This document shows positions 19,738 to 64,000 of a stretch of DNA of 64,000 bases, piece by piece. Source of the stretch: Escherichia coli (GTDB lineage: Bacteria; Pseudomonadota; Gammaproteobacteria; Enterobacterales; Enterobacteriaceae); the NCBI RefSeq assembly GCF_003790525.1, contig NZ_CP033635.1; one strand, given 5' to 3'. Below the pieces are notes generated by a model. The model did not search any database. It had not been told where the DNA came from and saw nothing but the letters and a program-made list of their open reading frames with translations. Each line of letters starts with the position of its first letter. The first letter of the stretch is position 1. The position numbers and the translations under genes were made by a program.

Positions 19738-21240
19738 ATGAATATCAGAAAACTGTTTTGTCCGGGCGACACACCCCGGATTTTATTGTTTTTATTCTTT
19801 TTTGTTATTTCTGTGATAATCACAATTGCATGCGGATACACTGAGAAGAATGCCACAGGAAATGTGCTGCTTCTGTTTCTCCTTCTGCTCCTTGCACACA
19901 GAAATACCCTCACATCCATTACAACGCTGTTATTTCTGTTCTGTTGTGCACTGTATGCGCCTGCGGGTATGACGTACGGTAAAATCAACAACAGTTTTAT
20001 TGTCGCGTTGCTGCAGACCACGGCTGATGAGGCTGCAGAGTTTACCGGGATGATTCCTGTTTATCATTTTCTGGTCAGTGCCGCGATTCTGGTATTCATG
20101 GTGATTTTCTGGCGGACACACCACCGCGGTCACCGTAACTGGCTGGCACTGCTGCTGTTCGTATTATGCTCTGTAAACAGCTGGCCGTTGCGGATGGTTA
20201 AAGGAACTGTTGTGGGGACAACTGACACATTGCGTGAAATGCAACATTATAAACAACTGAGTCAGCACGGGGCTGACAACTGGAAAATCCTGCCGGGAAC
20301 ACCGTTATATGACACAATTGTTATTGTCACTGGTGAGAGTGTGCGCAGGGATTATATGTCGGTATATGGCTATCCCGTGCCAACCACGCCGTGGCTGAAT
20401 ACGGCTCCCGGTTTATTTATTGACGGCTATACATCGGCAGCAGCCAGTACCGTACCTTCCCTGAGCCGGACACTGATTTATGACTATGAGCAGAACCCTG
20501 ACTCCGGCAACAACGTGGTGGCGCTGGCAGCAAAAGCAGGATACAGCACATGGTGGATATCCAATCAGGGAAAGCTGGGGGAGCATGATACACGCATCTC
20601 TGTTATTGCTTCTGATGCGGAGCATACCGTTTTCCTCAAGAAAGGCAGCTTTGCTTCCCGTAAAACGGATGACATGTTGTTGTTACAGGAAACAGAACGT
20701 GCACTGGCGGATAAATCCTCTCCGAAGGTGATATTCCTGCACATGATTGGCTCTCATCCGAATCCGTGTGACCGACTTAACTCCTGGCCGAATCATTACC
20801 TGGAGCAGTATCCCCGAAAGGTTGCCTGTTACCTCGCCAGCATCAGTAAACTGGATAACTTTCTCGGTCAGCTTGATGGTATCCTTCGCCGGCATTCCCG
20901 TCATTTCGTCATGCTTTACTTTTCTGACCATGGGCTGTCGGTCAGCGACAGTGCTAATCCTGTTCATCATGATGGTCATGTGCAGGGAGGCTACAGCGTT
21001 CCCCTGATTATTACCGCCAGTGATATCACGTCTCATCAGTCCGTCAGCAGAAAAATCAGTGCCCGTCATTTCGCAGGTATTTTTCAGTGGCTGACCGGCA
21101 TTCGTACTGAAAATATACCGCCATTCAATCCGCTGACAGACGAAGATAATGAACCCGTTATGGTTTTTAACGGAGAGAGGAATGTACTGGCAGACAGTCT
21201 GAAACCACAGCCTCTGATTCTTCCGGTCAAGGGAAAATAA
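19738..21240 (+). CDS. Sulfatase-superfamily phosphoethanolamine transferase (EptA/YhbX-like membrane protein)
   Basis: 500 aa; hydrophobic N-terminal domain with several TM helices followed by a periplasmic sulfatase-like domain (VIVTGESVRRDYMSVYGY..., HMIGSHPNP..., LYFSDHG). Start codon is uncertain. Confidence 0.65.
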   Translation: MNIRKLFCPGDTPRILLFLFFFVISVIITIACGYTEKNATGNVLLLFLLLLLAHRNTLTSITTLLFLFCCALYAPAGMTYGKINNSFIVALLQTTADEAAEFTGMIPVYHFLVSAAILVFMVIFWRTHHRGHRNWLALLLFVLCSVNSWPLRMVKGTVVGTTDTLREMQHYKQLSQHGADNWKILPGTPLYDTIVIVTGESVRRDYMSVYGYPVPTTPWLNTAPGLFIDGYTSAAASTVPSLSRTLIYDYEQNPDSGNNVVALAAKAGYSTWWISNQGKLGEHDTRISVIASDAEHTVFLKKGSFASRKTDDMLLLQETERALADKSSPKVIFLHMIGSHPNPCDRLNSWPNHYLEQYPRKVACYLASISKLDNFLGQLDGILRRHSRHFVMLYFSDHGLSVSDSANPVHHDGHVQGGYSVPLIITASDITSHQSVSRKISARHFAGIFQWLTGIRTENIPPFNPLTDEDNEPVMVFNGERNVLADSLKPQPLILPVKGK

Positions 21241-21598
21241 GCGTAATGTTCATCACCAGATTATGTACGATGAGTTTTCCACTGTTTATAGCAATTATCT
21301 TGCTAATAACCAGACAGGAGTAACCAGACCAACCGAAAACACCGGGGAGGTGATTACCCGCTGGCAGAGGAAATCCGGTTTTTTTGATGTCAGCCATAAC
21401 GTGTTTGACAATAAAGCATTATGAAAGGGTGTTAATGAGTCCATGGGATAATTCATAAAAATAATTTACTGTGTTATCCTTTTCAAAAGAAATATTCAGA
21501 AGATAACCCCTGGCTGACAACCAGGGAAAGGGGACATTAACAGTATTATTATTGGTGGATAAATTATTACTTGTGTGCAGGATACACTAATGCAATAT

Positions 21599-22642
21599 CT
21601 ACTGATACTGTATGCCAGAATGTTTCCTGCCTGCTGCTGAAAACGGCAATATCCAGGGCCAGACATATTCACCATTCATATTTCTGCATTTCTGTACAAT
21701 TTTCTCAGAAAGCGTCTCATCAATTCTTTCACGCAACTTCTCCTGCTGTCTTAAAATACTTTCGTATATTTCGAAATCATCTTCCTGCATCAGCATTTCG
21801 GCGCATTTAATGATTTCTGCCCGTTCATGCAGCACAGAGGAATGGTTATAGAGCCAGTTTACAAACAGCAATGCTTCCGGATATTGTCCCCATAATGGTG
21901 AGTATGTTGTATAATAATCTTCGGCAGTATCCGGCCCTGCAGAATAGTTATGCCATACAGCAAGAGGAAATGGATGCAGATTTCCGCACAGCATTTCCGC
22001 GATGTAAGTATTTGCCGCAAATCCGCGACGAAATGCAGTTGCAGCTTTTACCAGTTCCCCATTAAGAAAATGCAGAAGACCAAGTTCATACCAGTAAGGT
22101 GAAAATTCATCAGCATGTTTTTTCAGTACACTGAAGGCTCGCTCATGATCACCTGTTCGTAACAGTTCTGAACCCAACAACCAGCGGGCACCCTGATTAT
22201 CTTCAGGATTGTATGCCAGTATTTTATCAGTAAGCATAACCGCATCCTGATGACGCTGTAAGTGCACATTTGCGAGAATTGCTGCATAAAGCGCGCGCAG
22301 ATAAGGCCGGTTTTCGGGATGCATCCAGATGATTTCACCACTGAAACTTTCCGGGATGAGACGATTACCGGCCGCCAGTCCTTTAAGCGCGGCGTTCAGA
22401 GCCTTACGCGGGGCATTCTGCTCCAGAAATGCATATGCCAGATGAGCGTGTATATCAATAAAGTCAGGCTCCCGTTGAGCAAGATGCCTGAGTTTGTTGA
22501 TGTAACTCGTCTCGCTGATTTCATCAGTGTCGTATGCATCAAGCACTTCTTCAAACTCCCCCAGTAATGGGCCAAACCAGGTATCCGGAAATACGAAATA
22601 ACCCTTGTTATCGTGCACTTCAAAGCATAATCTATCGTTCAT
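21599..22642 (-). CDS. Hypothetical protein, predicted helical-repeat (TPR-like) fold, no signal peptide
   Basis: 347-aa ORF with no family recognised by eye. Lies between the integrase and the PEtN transferase and is flanked by AT-rich intergenic DNA. Confidence 0.5.
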   Translation of the reverse strand: MNDRLCFEVHDNKGYFVFPDTWFGPLLGEFEEVLDAYDTDEISETSYINKLRHLAQREPDFIDIHAHLAYAFLEQNAPRKALNAALKGLAAGNRLIPESFSGEIIWMHPENRPYLRALYAAILANVHLQRHQDAVMLTDKILAYNPEDNQGARWLLGSELLRTGDHERAFSVLKKHADEFSPYWYELGLLHFLNGELVKAATAFRRGFAANTYIAEMLCGNLHPFPLAVWHNYSAGPDTAEDYYTTYSPLWGQYPEALLFVNWLYNHSSVLHERAEIIKCAEMLMQEDDFEIYESILRQQEKLRERIDETLSEKIVQKCRNMNGEYVWPWILPFSAAGRKHSGIQYQ

Positions 22643-23053
22643 TTTCTGAGCCTGTAAAACATGTGGTGATATAGTCTGAGAGCATAAAAGTTGAGATTCT
22701 GTGTATCAAGTCCTGTCTTGGCACCGAATGAATATTGCTTACGAAGCCCCTTCATGCTTTCCTTGAGAACAATAATTTTATCTTTATGTGAATCTCATTT
22801 TTTATAATGATGTCAGATGATTGAAATGCTAAATTATATCTGAATCAACTTTTCCTTTGCTAAAGGTATCGAAATAACTGCAAGATTGTATTTTGTAATT
22901 GCCAATTTAAAAATGTCAATTTGTTTTTAATTATGTTTTTGTAATAAGTTTGAAGACACAAAAAAATAATATAATAACAAAAATCCTCCAGCCTTGTAGG
23001 CCAGAGGATAAAATACTTAATTGAGGAAAACATCAGGGAAAAGTATTTCTGAC

Positions 23054-24238
23054 TTAACTTTCCCGGCTGGAGAGTGAATCAATGTAATCAGCGTACCATT
23101 GCATCATTTCACGGCGGCCATCGAGATACAGGGCATGATTATAGGTACCCCTGATGGAATTTTTATCCACATGAGCTAACTGCATTTCAATCCAGGCGGA
23201 GTTAAAGCCTTGTTCATGCAGAATTGTACTCATGGTGTGTCTGAAACCGTGCCCTGTGAGTCTTCCCTTATATCCAAGTAATTCAATTACTTGGTTAATG
23301 CTTTCCTTACTAATTGGTTTGCGGGGATCATTTCTACCGATAAAGACTAGGGGATGATGTTTTGAGATTGGTTCAAGCTGCTTAAATAGCATAATAACCT
23401 GCTCAGAGAGCGGCACAATATGAGGTCGCTTCATCTTCATTACTTCTGCCGGGATCTCCCACAATTTTGTCTCAAAATCGATATCTTCCCAGCGTGCAAA
23501 ACGCAGTTCTTGTGTTCGTACGCCGGTTAACATAATGATCTGAGTAGCTGTCTTAGTGATTATACTTCCGGTATAACCCGCCAGATCGTTGAGGAAGTGG
23601 GGAAGTTCATTAGCAGTAAGAAAGGGAAAATGTACTTTTTTCGGTGTAGCTAAAGCACTGGCAAGATCGGGGGCTGGGTTATAGTCTGCCCGGCCAGTAA
23701 CAATTGCATAGCGGAACACCTCACCACAGCGCTGGCGGACCTTGCGCATTTTCTCCAGAGCTCCACGTTTTTCCATTTTACGCAGTGCTTCCAGTAACTC
23801 CATTGGTTTGATTTCGGCAATAGGGCGCTTGCCAATGTAGGGAAAAATGTCTTTTTCAAAGGTATCAATGATTTCATCACGATAGCGTAATGACCACCGA
23901 TCGGCTTTTGACTGGTGCCATTCGCGAGCAATAGCCTCGAACGTATTTTTCAGACTTATTTGCTGCGCGATTTTTTCTTCCTTTTTTGCCTCCCCTGGAT
24001 CGCCTCCAGCAGCGAGGAGTTTCCTGGCTTCACTGCGTTTCTCGCGAGCATCGGCTAGCGTTACATCGGGGTATACGCCAATAGAAAGCATCTTTTCTTT
24101 ACCAGCAAAGCGGTACTTCATGCGCCAGTATTTAGAACCATTAGTGTTAATCAGTAGATACATACCGCCGCCATCAGCAAGCTTATAGGGTTTGTCTTTG
24201 GGTTTTGCGGTTTTCACTTTGATATCGGTTAATGCCAT
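23054..24238 (-). CDS. P4-type (tyrosine recombinase) integrase next to tRNA-Sec
   Basis: 394 aa; N-terminus MALTDIKVKTAKPKDKPYKLADGGGMYLLINTNGSKYWRMKYRFAGKEKMLSIGVYPDVTLADAREKR is the classic P4/CP4-57 integrase N-terminal domain; C-terminal catalytic region has GHGFRHT and LAH..........Y motifs. Confidence 0.9.
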   Translation of the reverse strand: MALTDIKVKTAKPKDKPYKLADGGGMYLLINTNGSKYWRMKYRFAGKEKMLSIGVYPDVTLADAREKRSEARKLLAAGGDPGEAKKEEKIAQQISLKNTFEAIAREWHQSKADRWSLRYRDEIIDTFEKDIFPYIGKRPIAEIKPMELLEALRKMEKRGALEKMRKVRQRCGEVFRYAIVTGRADYNPAPDLASALATPKKVHFPFLTANELPHFLNDLAGYTGSIITKTATQIIMLTGVRTQELRFARWEDIDFETKLWEIPAEVMKMKRPHIVPLSEQVIMLFKQLEPISKHHPLVFIGRNDPRKPISKESINQVIELLGYKGRLTGHGFRHTMSTILHEQGFNSAWIEMQLAHVDKNSIRGTYNHALYLDGRREMMQWYADYIDSLSSRES

Positions 24239-24537
24239 GACATCCTCCGGCTTTTGATGAATTCATGTTCCTGAGGGGGATTTCTGCCAGTAACTAACCT
24301 GATACCCCCAATACACCCCTTGTATAACAAAGATGTTGTTAAAAGCCGTTGTTATGTATCACATTTTTCCTATTATGGGGGTGCTTGTATTTCAATAGGA
24401 AATAACACCCCCTAAAGTACCCCCAAAAGAAACTTGATACGGGGTGAAGTAGGTTGACCTCAGGATACAAATAAATACTGATATACAAGGGATTAGAAGA
24501 GATTTATTGACATTGGGAGAGTTCAGAAGAGGTAAAC

Positions 24538-24632
24538 TGGCGGAAGATCACAGGAGTCGAACCTGCCCGGGACCGCTGGCGGCCCCAACTGGATTTGAAG
24601 TCCAGCCGCCTCACCGGAGACGACGATCTTCC
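24538..24632 (-). tRNA. selC: tRNA-Sec (selenocysteine, selC)
   Basis: Reverse complement of 24538..24632 matches the 95-nt E. coli selC sequence (GGAAGATCGTCGTCTCCGGTGAGGCGGCTGGACTTCAAATCCAGTTGGGGCCGCCAGCGGTCCCGGGCAGGTTCGACTCCTGTGATCTTCCGCCA) as recalled. Confidence 0.9.
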
Positions 24633-24924
24633 GCGCCTCGATTGCTACATGGAGGCGGGGCGCATTATAGCTACTTCCTTGAGTTTCTACATCCCCCAGA
24701 TCAGTTTTTTCCGCCTAATACATGCAGCGTATTATCACGAAAGCATTATAGTTCATATAAAACCCATACTTTACAATGATATATGAGCGTAATTTACGCT
24801 ACCACGATCACATAAAACAAGAATCATAAATTAATAACCAGATATCGGAATATTCGCTCTCGCAGGGATGGTTTACAAAATGCGTTATCGGTCTCAGCAC
24901 CCCTATAGCATCAAGGAAAAGCAG

Positions 24925-26307
24925 ATGAAGAGTGAAGTGTTGTCCGTTAAAGAGAAAATTGGTTATGGCATGGGAGACGCCGCCAGCCACATTATTTTCG
25001 ATAACGTAATGTTATATATGATGTTCTTTTATACCGATATTTTTGGCATTCCTGCCGGATTTGTCGGAACCATGTTTTTGGTCGCTCGTGCACTGGATGC
25101 GATTTCCGATCCTTGCATGGGGTTGTTGGCCGATCGAACGCGCTCTCGCTGGGGTAAATTTCGTCCGTGGGTACTGTTTGGCGCACTGCCATTTGGGATC
25201 GTCTGTGTACTGGCCTATAGCACGCCAGATCTCAGTATGAACGGAAAAATGATTTATGCAGCAATTACTTACACCCTACTTACCTTACTTTATACCATCG
25301 TTAATATCCCTTACTGCGCATTGGGTGGTGTAATCACCAATGACCCGACTCAGCGTATCTCGCTGCAATCCTGGCGTTTTGTGCTGGCGACTGCGGGAGG
25401 CATGCTCTCTACTGTTCTGATGATGCCGCTGGTTAATTTAATTGGTGGTGATAATAAACCACTCGGTTTCCAGGGCGGTATCGCGGTCCTTTCCGTGGTG
25501 GCATTCATGATGCTGGCATTTTGTTTCTTCACCACTAAAGAACGCGTTGAAGCACCACCTACAACGACGTCTATGAGGGAAGATTTACGTGATATCTGGC
25601 AAAACGACCAGTGGCGTATTGTCGGTTTACTAACCATTTTCAATATTCTGGCGGTATGCGTACGCGGCGGGGCGATGATGTATTACGTCACATGGATTTT
25701 GGGTACGCCGGAAGTGTTTGTCGCTTTTCTTACCACTTATTGCGTGGGTAACCTGATTGGTTCCGCACTGGCGAAACCGCTGACCGACTGGAAATGTAAA
25801 GTCACTATCTTCTGGTGGACGAACGCCCTGCTGGCAGTGATTAGCCTCGCGATGTTCTTTGTTCCTATGCAGGCCAGCATCACCATGTTTGTCTTCATCT
25901 TCGTGATTGGTGTGTTGCATCAACTGGTGACACCTATCCAGTGGGTAATGATGTCCGATACCGTCGACTACGGCGAGTGGTGTAATGGTAAACGCCTGAC
26001 CGGGATCAGTTTTGCTGGCACGCTGTTTGTGCTCAAACTGGGGTTGGCCTTCGGCGGCGCTCTTATCGGCTGGATGCTGGCTTATGGCGGATATGATGCG
26101 GCAGAAAAAGCGCAGAACAGCGCCACGATTAGCATCATTATCGCGCTATTCACGATTGTTCCGGCGATCTGTTATTTGCTGAGCGCGATTATCGCTAAAC
26201 GCTACTACTCACTCACGACGCACAATCTGAAAACCGTTATGGAACAGCTGGCCCAGGGCAAACGCCGTTGCCAGCAACAATTCACCTCTCAAGAAGTGCA
26301 GAACTAA
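24925..26307 (+). CDS. yicJ: GPH-family (glycoside-pentoside-hexuronide) MFS symporter YicJ
   Basis: Start chosen at MKSEVLSVKEKIGYGMGDAASH (460 aa), matching K-12 YicJ; the track ORF extends 19 codons further upstream. Confidence 0.85.
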   Translation: MKSEVLSVKEKIGYGMGDAASHIIFDNVMLYMMFFYTDIFGIPAGFVGTMFLVARALDAISDPCMGLLADRTRSRWGKFRPWVLFGALPFGIVCVLAYSTPDLSMNGKMIYAAITYTLLTLLYTIVNIPYCALGGVITNDPTQRISLQSWRFVLATAGGMLSTVLMMPLVNLIGGDNKPLGFQGGIAVLSVVAFMMLAFCFFTTKERVEAPPTTTSMREDLRDIWQNDQWRIVGLLTIFNILAVCVRGGAMMYYVTWILGTPEVFVAFLTTYCVGNLIGSALAKPLTDWKCKVTIFWWTNALLAVISLAMFFVPMQASITMFVFIFVIGVLHQLVTPIQWVMMSDTVDYGEWCNGKRLTGISFAGTLFVLKLGLAFGGALIGWMLAYGGYDAAEKAQNSATISIIIALFTIVPAICYLLSAIIAKRYYSLTTHNLKTVMEQLAQGKRRCQQQFTSQEVQN

Positions 26308-62807: not shown

Positions 62808-63824
62808 ATGAGTGCCCACTATTTTAATCCACAAGAGATGATCAATAAGACAATCATCTTCGATGAAAGGCCAGAGGCGTCAGTGGCATCATCATTCCAT
62901 GTTGCTTATGGCATTGATCAGAACTTTCTTTTTGGTTGTGGTGTTTCAATCACGTCAGTTTTGTTACATAACAACGACGTGAGTTTTGTCTTCCACGTTT
63001 TTATTGATGATATCCCTGACGCCGATATCCAGCGTTTATCCCAATTGGCGAAAAGCTATCATACCTGTATCCAGATCCATCTGGTAAATTGTGAACGGCT
63101 TAAGGTATTACCGACGACCAAAAATTGGTCTATTGCCATGTATTTCCGTTTTGTAATTGCAGATTACTTTATTGATCAACAAGATAAGATCCTGTACCTG
63201 GATGCTGATATCGCCTGTCAGGGAACCTTAAAACCGCTGATAACAATGGATCTTGCCAATAACGTTGCTGCTGTTGTTACTGAACGCGATGCTAACTGGT
63301 GGTCGTTACGGGCTCAAAGTCTGCAGTGTAATGAACTTGAAAAGGGTTACTTTAATTCAGGTGTCCTGTTAATTAATACACCTGCGTGGGCGCAGGAGTC
63401 CGTTTCTGCTAAAGCGATGTCGATGCTTGCTGATAAAGCCGTCGTTTCCCGTTTAACCTATATGGATCAAGATATACTAAATCTTATCCTGTTAGGGAAA
63501 GTTAAATTCATTGATGCTAAATACAATACGCAATTTAGTTTAAATTATGAATTAAAAAAATCATTTATTTGTCCAATTAATGATGAAGCCGTATTAATTC
63601 ATTATGTCGGCCCGACAAAACCCTGGCATTACTGGGCCGGTTATCCAAGCGCGCAGCCATTTATCAAAGCCAAAGAAGCATCGCCCTGGAAAAATGAACA
63701 GTTAATGCGGCCAATTAACTCAAATTATGCTCGTTATTGCGCCAAGCATAATTTTAAACAAAATAAACCAATTAACGGGATAATGAATTATATTTATTAT
63801 TTTTATTTAAAGATAATAAAATGA
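62808..63824 (+). CDS. LPS outer-core GT8 glycosyltransferase (WaaO/WaaI family)
   Basis: 338 aa with GT8 features (GIDQNFLFGCGVSITSVLLHN, DADIACQG DxD-type motif, NSGVLLIN). Its position directly after waaP differs from K-12, where waaS and waaB follow waaP. Confidence 0.75.
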   Translation: MSAHYFNPQEMINKTIIFDERPEASVASSFHVAYGIDQNFLFGCGVSITSVLLHNNDVSFVFHVFIDDIPDADIQRLSQLAKSYHTCIQIHLVNCERLKVLPTTKNWSIAMYFRFVIADYFIDQQDKILYLDADIACQGTLKPLITMDLANNVAAVVTERDANWWSLRAQSLQCNELEKGYFNSGVLLINTPAWAQESVSAKAMSMLADKAVVSRLTYMDQDILNLILLGKVKFIDAKYNTQFSLNYELKKSFICPINDEAVLIHYVGPTKPWHYWAGYPSAQPFIKAKEASPWKNEQLMRPINSNYARYCAKHNFKQNKPINGIMNYIYYFYLKIIK

Positions 63825-63839
63825 CATTGAGAAAAGTTA

Positions 63840-64000
63840 AATGAATGAATTTATAAAAGAACGGTTTTCGTATTTAGCAGATAATAAAAAAGAAAACGTC
63901 CCAGAGCTAAATGTTTCCTACGGTATCGATAAGAATTTTTTGTATGGTGCTGGCGTTTCAATTTCTTCCGTTTTGATTAATAATTCAGATATTAATTTTG
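63840..64000 (+). CDS. Second GT8 glycosyltransferase (WaaT/WaaJ/WaaR-like), 5' part only; runs off the window end
   Basis: Translation MNEFIKERFSYLADNKKENVPELNVSYGIDKNFLYGAGVSISSVLINNSDINF parallels the N-terminus of the preceding GT8 protein. Confidence 0.6.

Follow-up and report, generated by a model that had tools for sequence, protein, structure and literature searches.

A predicted Rho-independent terminator and a likely promoter in the AT-rich spacer between the integrase and TPR genes of an Escherichia coli selC island

We analysed a 411-bp gap (positions 22643–23053) within a 64,000-nt stretch of Escherichia coli DNA, hereafter the window, that is delimited by the stop codon of an integrase gene on one side and by the start of a gene for a tetratricopeptide repeat (TPR) protein on the other. 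The gap sits inside a genomic island integrated at the tRNA-Sec gene selC. The minus strand carries both flanking genes, one for a P4-type integrase and the other for a TPR protein of 347 aa, and the relevant RNA is therefore the reverse complement of the strand that was first read; leftward from selC, this RNA strand runs from the integrase gene through the gap into the TPR gene. Coordinates of all features and the evidence for each are collected in Table 1. The 811-bp stretch 22443–23253 is 100% identical to strain GF43 and others, and ES1 likewise has the identical locus. Among 5,426 complete E. coli genomes, 1,158 have all or part of the locus, ST131 EC958 and BL21-type strains among them. 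EC958, whose GI-selC island is described in PMC4134206, has the identical locus.

Table 1 Features in and around the gap between the integrase and TPR genes, in window coordinates
Feature	Position	Strand	Evidence
tRNA-Sec (selC), island integration site	24538..24632	-	ARAGORN; Rfam RF01852, 83.8 bits; RefSeq annotation of identical loci
P4-type tyrosine integrase gene, 394 aa	23054..24238	-	Pfam Arm-DNA-bind_3, Phage_int_M, Phage_integrase; PHROG 1 integrase
Integrase 3′ UTR, stop codon to stem, 44 nt	23010..23053	-	Read from sequence; partly conserved between spacer alleles
Predicted terminator stem-loop, 12 bp including two G–U pairs, 3-nt loop	22983..23009	-	Terminator scan; fold; consensus of nine loci
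U-rich tail of the predicted terminator, UUUUGUUAUUAUAUUAUUUUUUU	22960..22982	-	Scan; fold; first 7 nt (TTTTGTT) invariant
AT-rich variable spacer; candidate H-NS target; zone of IS insertion and recombination	22715..22959	.	Composition; identity; IS ends
Distal promoter-like site, TTGACA-N18-CAAAAT, 10/12 matches (doubtful)	22890..22919	-	Scan; TTGACA in allele A only
Proposed promoter P1: −35 TTGATA (22709–22704), 17-nt spacer, −10 TATGCT (22686–22681)	22681..22709	-	Scan; conservation
Predicted 5′ UTR of the TPR gene, ~32 nt, RBS AGG at 22653–22651	22643..22674	-	Invariant run GTTTTACAGGCTCAGAAAATGAA
TPR-repeat protein gene, 347 aa	21599..22642	-	Pfam ANAPC3 above cut-off; weaker sub-threshold matches to TPR families

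The remaining cargo of the island comprises genes for a phosphoethanolamine transferase, an outer-membrane protein, PhoX, and xylose and xyloside utilisation, together with IS elements. The outer-membrane protein gene (18816–19556) and the 500-aa phosphoethanolamine transferase gene (19738–21240) are both on the plus strand and convergent with the TPR gene; the transferase we take to be of the EptA/MCR type, going only by its annotated product name. At its position, loci that carry the second spacer allele described below (allele B) have a gene annotated 'sulfatase-like hydrolase/transferase'. A short hypothetical-protein pseudogene fragment (21229–21456, minus strand) lies between the TPR and phosphoethanolamine transferase genes and overlaps the 3′ end of the latter; EC958 and BL21 have an intact 76-aa hypothetical gene at the same position. 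A search of a phage collection returned one irrelevant match, to an Acinetobacter phage, inside the integrase gene.

The gene downstream of the gap is annotated at identical loci as either 'tetratricopeptide repeat protein' or 'hypothetical protein'. We found 86 homologues of its product, and most of the full-length ones (at least ~90% query coverage) measure 321–356 aa; conservation of the N-terminal coding sequence, which reads MNDRL.FEV in close relatives, sets in at the annotated ATG. Homologue lengths and this conserved N-terminus support the annotated start. Searches of Pfam, NCBIfam, PADLOC, PHROGs and PDB sequences for a function returned generic TPR repeats only, and the AlphaFold model, though confident (pLDDT 92.7), likewise matched only generic TPR superhelices in Foldseek. 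The gene is found in selC and pheV islands as well as on IncF conjugative plasmids, where it stands beside a GGDEF gene (L020, 2501–3541). A Morganella homologue with 56% protein identity (L015, 3325–4347) is placed between a Tn3-family transposase and a resolvase, and more distant homologues of 45–47% identity come from sources named Massilia, Vitreoscilla and another betaproteobacterium. The TPR protein is thus highly mobile and widespread.

An earlier note on this DNA had placed and described the gap correctly as an AT-rich region. Its G+C content is 30.7%, compared with 49.7% for the window, and falls to 24% in a core at 22761–22952. Only 0.22% of 411-bp segments are as G+C-poor, and the gap is one of three such troughs; the two others, equally extreme at ~30% G+C, lie at ~12100–12650, in or near an IS66-family element, and at ~63420–63960. 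TpA steps are 1.7 times as dense as in the window (8.3 vs 4.8 per 100 bp). Homopolymeric A/T tracts, which the note had also pointed out, are present but only mildly in excess of what composition produces, since six runs of at least 5 nt compare with 2.5 ± 1.5 in mononucleotide shuffles of the gap itself (P ~0.04). The further statement that no ORF reaches 60 aa holds narrowly; the longest has 57 aa (22860–23033, minus strand).

A scan of the gap for intrinsic terminators returned a single site, on the minus strand only, at the hairpin 22983–23009. The earlier note had located this hairpin exactly and had rightly set it downstream of the integrase stop codon; its description as imperfect applies to the plus strand alone. 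On the minus strand, the RNA forms a continuous 12-bp stem, AUCCUCUGGCCU-ACA-AGGCUGGAGGAU, with six G–C pairs and a folding energy of −18.1 kcal/mol, whereas the plus-strand hairpin is weaker (−13.6 kcal/mol) and interrupted by a 2 × 2 internal loop. The two mismatches of the plus strand are G–U pairs on the minus strand, which identifies the minus strand as the functional strand of the hairpin. Its fold has a z-score of −4.26 on the minus strand, and none of 200 dinucleotide shuffles was as stable on either strand. The U-tract UUUUGUUAUU follows directly 3′ of the stem on the minus strand; the plus-strand hairpin has no T-tract behind it, so that the terminator would be unidirectional.

The hairpin is kept in all nine loci compared, which span integrase lineages of selC, pheV and pheU with nucleotide identity down to 63%. 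The consensus fold of these loci, which represent ~3 lineages, contains 10 pairs, none of them broken: one pair shows a compensatory change (U-A to C-G), and three are altered on one side and still paired, two of these by changes from C-G/G-C to U-G/G-U. In a seven-locus alignment, the beginning of the tail, TTTTGTT (22976–22982), is invariant. The hairpin is a predicted canonical, strand-specific Rho-independent terminator of the integrase gene, and it is from this anatomy, strand specificity and conservation that we infer termination.

At the other end of the gap, comparative evidence bears out the suggestion that a promoter or 5′ UTR for the hypothetical gene may lie here, in the form of a conserved promoter-like element, P1, and a conserved leader with its ribosome-binding site (RBS). 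P1 is sigma-70-like, matches nine of 12 consensus positions and lies 38 nt upstream of the ATG. The promoter scan of the gap is not enriched over shuffles (three sites vs 3.3 expected), so that the support for P1 comes from conservation and not from the scan. In nine of 12 homologous loci, which together with the aligned set amount to ~3–4 independent lineages and two plasmid or transposon contexts and thus make for thin statistics, P1 ranks first among the promoter-like sites up to 120 nt from the ATG, with unchanged spacing and at a distance of 38–40 nt; two more distant homologues (L013, L016) are without it. In the IncF plasmid copy (L020), similarity to the window begins 1–2 nt upstream of the −35 hexamer and runs into the gene. 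The Morganella copy carries TTGAAA-N17-TATGCT 42 nt from its ATG, tied for the top score, while its remaining upstream DNA is unalignable.

The seven-locus alignment contains the invariant runs TGATACACA and TTTATGCT at P1, and a 23-nt block, GTTTTACAGGCTCAGAAAATGAA (22660–22638), that spans the RBS and the start codon shows no variation across the seven E. coli loci of the alignment. The motif CAGGC recurs in three distant homologues. An exact-pattern scan for the invariant leader TTTTACAGGCTCAGAAAATGAA in single representative genomes of 100,044 species gave 0 matches, and the leader was therefore not found beyond the sampled pool of E. coli, Shigella and plasmids. P1 is proposed as the promoter that likely serves the TPR gene, for which transcription is predicted to begin near 22674 and the leader to measure ~32 nt; a literature search for dRNA-seq at this locus turned up none, and the start given here is the predicted one. 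Given its weak −10 element, P1 may depend on an activator or on relief of silencing. The distal promoter-like site (Table 1) is doubtful as a promoter, because it lacks conservation in the second spacer allele.

Between P1 and the terminator lies the variable AT-rich spacer (22715–22959), in which no conserved ORF or structure was found. It exists in two alleles: allele A is carried by the window, EC958, BL21 and the pheV locus L005, and allele B by L003, L004, L009 and L021. The loci set against the window for allele A were L005, L017 and L018. Compared segment by segment between P1 and the terminator, the alleles are mostly 40–57% identical, with large indels, and the integrase 3′ UTR is 45–60% identical between them. 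Nucleotide identity between our sequence and L003 is 94% in the integrase gene, 93% in the TPR gene and 62% in the spacer; the corresponding values for L005 are 63%, 84% and 83%. Each allele is found alongside integrases of the selC type and of the pheV type, two types that share 63% nucleotide identity; recombination has hence exchanged this segment, which begins at about the last 7 codons of the integrase gene and stops just short of P1, separately from the genes on either side. Since either allele keeps P1 and the terminator, the swap affects chiefly the upstream AT-rich DNA and the ~7 final codons of the integrase gene.

In other strains, the same DNA is repeatedly interrupted. An IS1 end lies at 22952 in EAEC 042 and many others (junction in L006), abutting GAAGAC; an IS3 end at 22741 in an espI island (junction in L010); an IS66 end at 22705 in a pheU island carrying genes for Dr adhesin (junction in L007); and an unrelated junction without an IS at 22813 (L008). 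The AT-rich spacer is thus a recurrent breakpoint of island mosaicism, with differing cargo beyond the junctions. One short element within it, the 10-mer ATAAAGATAA (22778–22787, minus strand), is invariant between the otherwise hardly alignable spacer alleles, lies ~100 nt upstream of the predicted transcription start and in allele B forms a near-tandem AGATAA-AGATAA. Its repetition in the window does not exceed chance (two matches vs 1.3 expected), and inspection by eye for CRP, Fur or IHF consensus sequences found none; with only ~3 lineages aligned, its invariance may be due to chance. A 16-nt inverted repeat (22684–22699/22790–22805), whose complementarity is largely lost in L005, was taken as a chance occurrence.

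We consider it quite probable that the gap is an intergenic spacer of the conventional kind, separating two genes of the selC island that share a strand and are transcribed independently. According to the mechanism that we propose, the integrase mRNA would end at the Rho-independent terminator, 44 nt past the stop codon, with its stem-loop at 23009–22983 and a U-tail reaching to ~22960. The next ~245 bp, very rich in AT and under weak constraint, are probably covered with H-NS, as is other acquired AT-rich DNA; beyond them, a sigma-70-type promoter, TTGATA-N17-TATGCT (22709–22681), would start the TPR transcript at ~22674 with a leader of ~32 nt. The two genes probably form separate transcription units. 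All parts of the gap are standard members of textbook classes, namely (i) an intrinsic terminator, (ii) a sigma-70 promoter with an RBS and (iii) AT-rich island DNA.

H-NS could contribute more than a coat. If xenogeneic silencing were the main role of the region, the AT-rich core would be a nucleation site for H-NS (or Hha/StpA) at which the TPR gene and spurious island promoters are repressed, a reading that is compatible with the terminator-plus-promoter reading and not exclusive of it. H-NS prefers AT-rich, horizontally acquired DNA, a preference reportedly documented by Navarre and by Lucchini in 2006 and by Lang in 2007. The 24% G+C core, the raised TpA density and the A/T tracts, in a horizontally acquired island beside a tRNA gene, fit such a target, and binding of H-NS to the spacer is plausible by analogy. 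However, the best match to the high-affinity motif TCGATAAATT has two mismatches in 10 positions, the AT-rich core is the least conserved part of the gap, as its low identity between alleles shows, and the literature search on H-NS ChIP gave nothing for this locus. We put silencing as the main role at somewhat less than an even chance. The exchange of alleles raises a different view of the same DNA, in which the ~360-bp segment at ~22715–23075 is an exchangeable regulatory cassette, or in which the integrase 3′ UTR and terminator yield a 3′-UTR-derived small RNA; we regard this view as unlikely. If the segment did act as a cassette, exchanging its alleles could change how the TPR gene is silenced or activated.

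A small RNA, which the earlier note had listed among the possible contents of the gap, could be a free-standing gene or a 3′-UTR-derived product of the integrase mRNA that shares its terminator. The strong terminator with its long U-tail could bind Hfq, a block in the integrase 3′ UTR (CCTGAT.TTTC) is kept between otherwise diverged alleles, and a TTGACA-N18-CAAAAT site is present at 22919–22890. This suggestion found no support: no Rfam family is present, there is no extra folding, and the terminator belongs to the integrase gene. The covariance-model search that the note had proposed, run with Rfam 15 on 20000–26000 at a permissive E up to 10, returned only tRNA-Sec and noise; all matches but tRNA-Sec had E >3.6, far below gathering scores, and those over the hairpin (SNORD111, NsiR1) had E 6–8 and ~18–21 bits against gathering scores of 39–46. 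Outside the hairpin, fold z-scores range from −0.2 to +1.6 (100–138-nt pieces, both strands), the consensus fold shows the terminator only, and the scan contains no second terminator. No promoter-like site precedes the terminator in the 3′ end of the integrase gene, the distal site lies downstream of the terminator, and the integrase 3′ UTR has diverged strongly between alleles apart from the block named above. We judge a small RNA to be very unlikely. Still less probable is a small protein, either from a 38-aa ORF (22639–22755, minus strand) translationally coupled to the TPR gene or from the 57-aa ORF. The 38-aa ORF has a Shine-Dalgarno-like AAGGA, overlaps the TPR start in an ATGA and is intact in the group of 97–100% identity, but in relatives of 83% and 62% identity, where the DNA is still alignable, its start codon is lost or its frame is broken by 1-nt indels. 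Both EC958/BL21 substitutions in it are non-synonymous, and P1 lies inside it, so that the predicted transcript excludes its start. The 57-aa ORF passes through the terminator, carries a frameshift in the EC958 and BL21-type loci (98% identity) and is absent in others. Neither ORF has a Pfam match, and both were rejected as genes because relatives do not conserve their frames. The gap also adjoins an integrase with an arm-binding domain, which might suggest arm-type or other recombination sites belonging to the att machinery; yet the integrase gene separates it from the tRNA and att core, and no repeat family is common to 22643–23053 and the spacer between selC and the integrase gene, where matches are chance-sized two-copy matches of 11–18 nt. 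We give this reading hardly any credence.

The preferred reading, a conventional spacer with a terminator and a promoter, adds an unannotated predicted terminator and a likely promoter to this E. coli locus, and has little import beyond annotation. On this reading, neither the 38-aa nor the 57-aa ORF should be annotated as a gene. With its two alleles and its several IS and recombination junctions, the spacer can usefully mark island mosaicism, and future work would do better to target the TPR protein than the spacer.

The integrase modules of tRNA-associated islands at selC, pheV and pheU share the order and orientation found here, from the tRNA gene through the integrase gene to the cargo, and the espI island at selC has the same integrase and part of the gap spacer. 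Published accounts of selC, pheV and pheU islands, including PMC4134206, treat the islands as wholes, and in their available parts the integrase-distal spacer, the terminator and the TPR promoter go unmentioned; a literature search on GI-selC, on a selC integrase with a TPR gene, on H-NS at selC and on BL21 transcription starts returned nothing specific to this spacer. Judged by sequence analysis against the established classes, the gap has the features of an intrinsic terminator and of a sigma-70 promoter, lacks those of a small RNA and of a small protein, and shows a mixed set for H-NS-silenced DNA. The predicted terminator resembles E. coli intrinsic terminators in its G+C-rich 12-bp stem, its short loop, its U-tract and its site on the same strand 44 nt past the stop codon; its U-tract is interrupted (UUUUGUUAUU) but embedded in a long U/A-rich tail, and it is otherwise in no way unusual. 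P1 is like sigma-70 promoters in its TTGATA (5/6), its 17-nt spacer and its TATGCT (4/6, with the key A2 and T6 kept), and has a weak −10 without an extended −10.

With H-NS-silenced island DNA the gap has in common a very low G+C content, A/T tracts, many TpA steps and integration at a tRNA gene. It differs in being without a high-affinity motif and in its poor conservation. Horizontal replacement of non-coding regulatory DNA between strains, termed 'regulatory switching', was reportedly described by Oren et al. in 2014. The locus is comparable in that flanking genes of 93–94% identity enclose a spacer of 62% identity with large indels, and it differs in that P1 and the terminator are kept in both spacer alleles.
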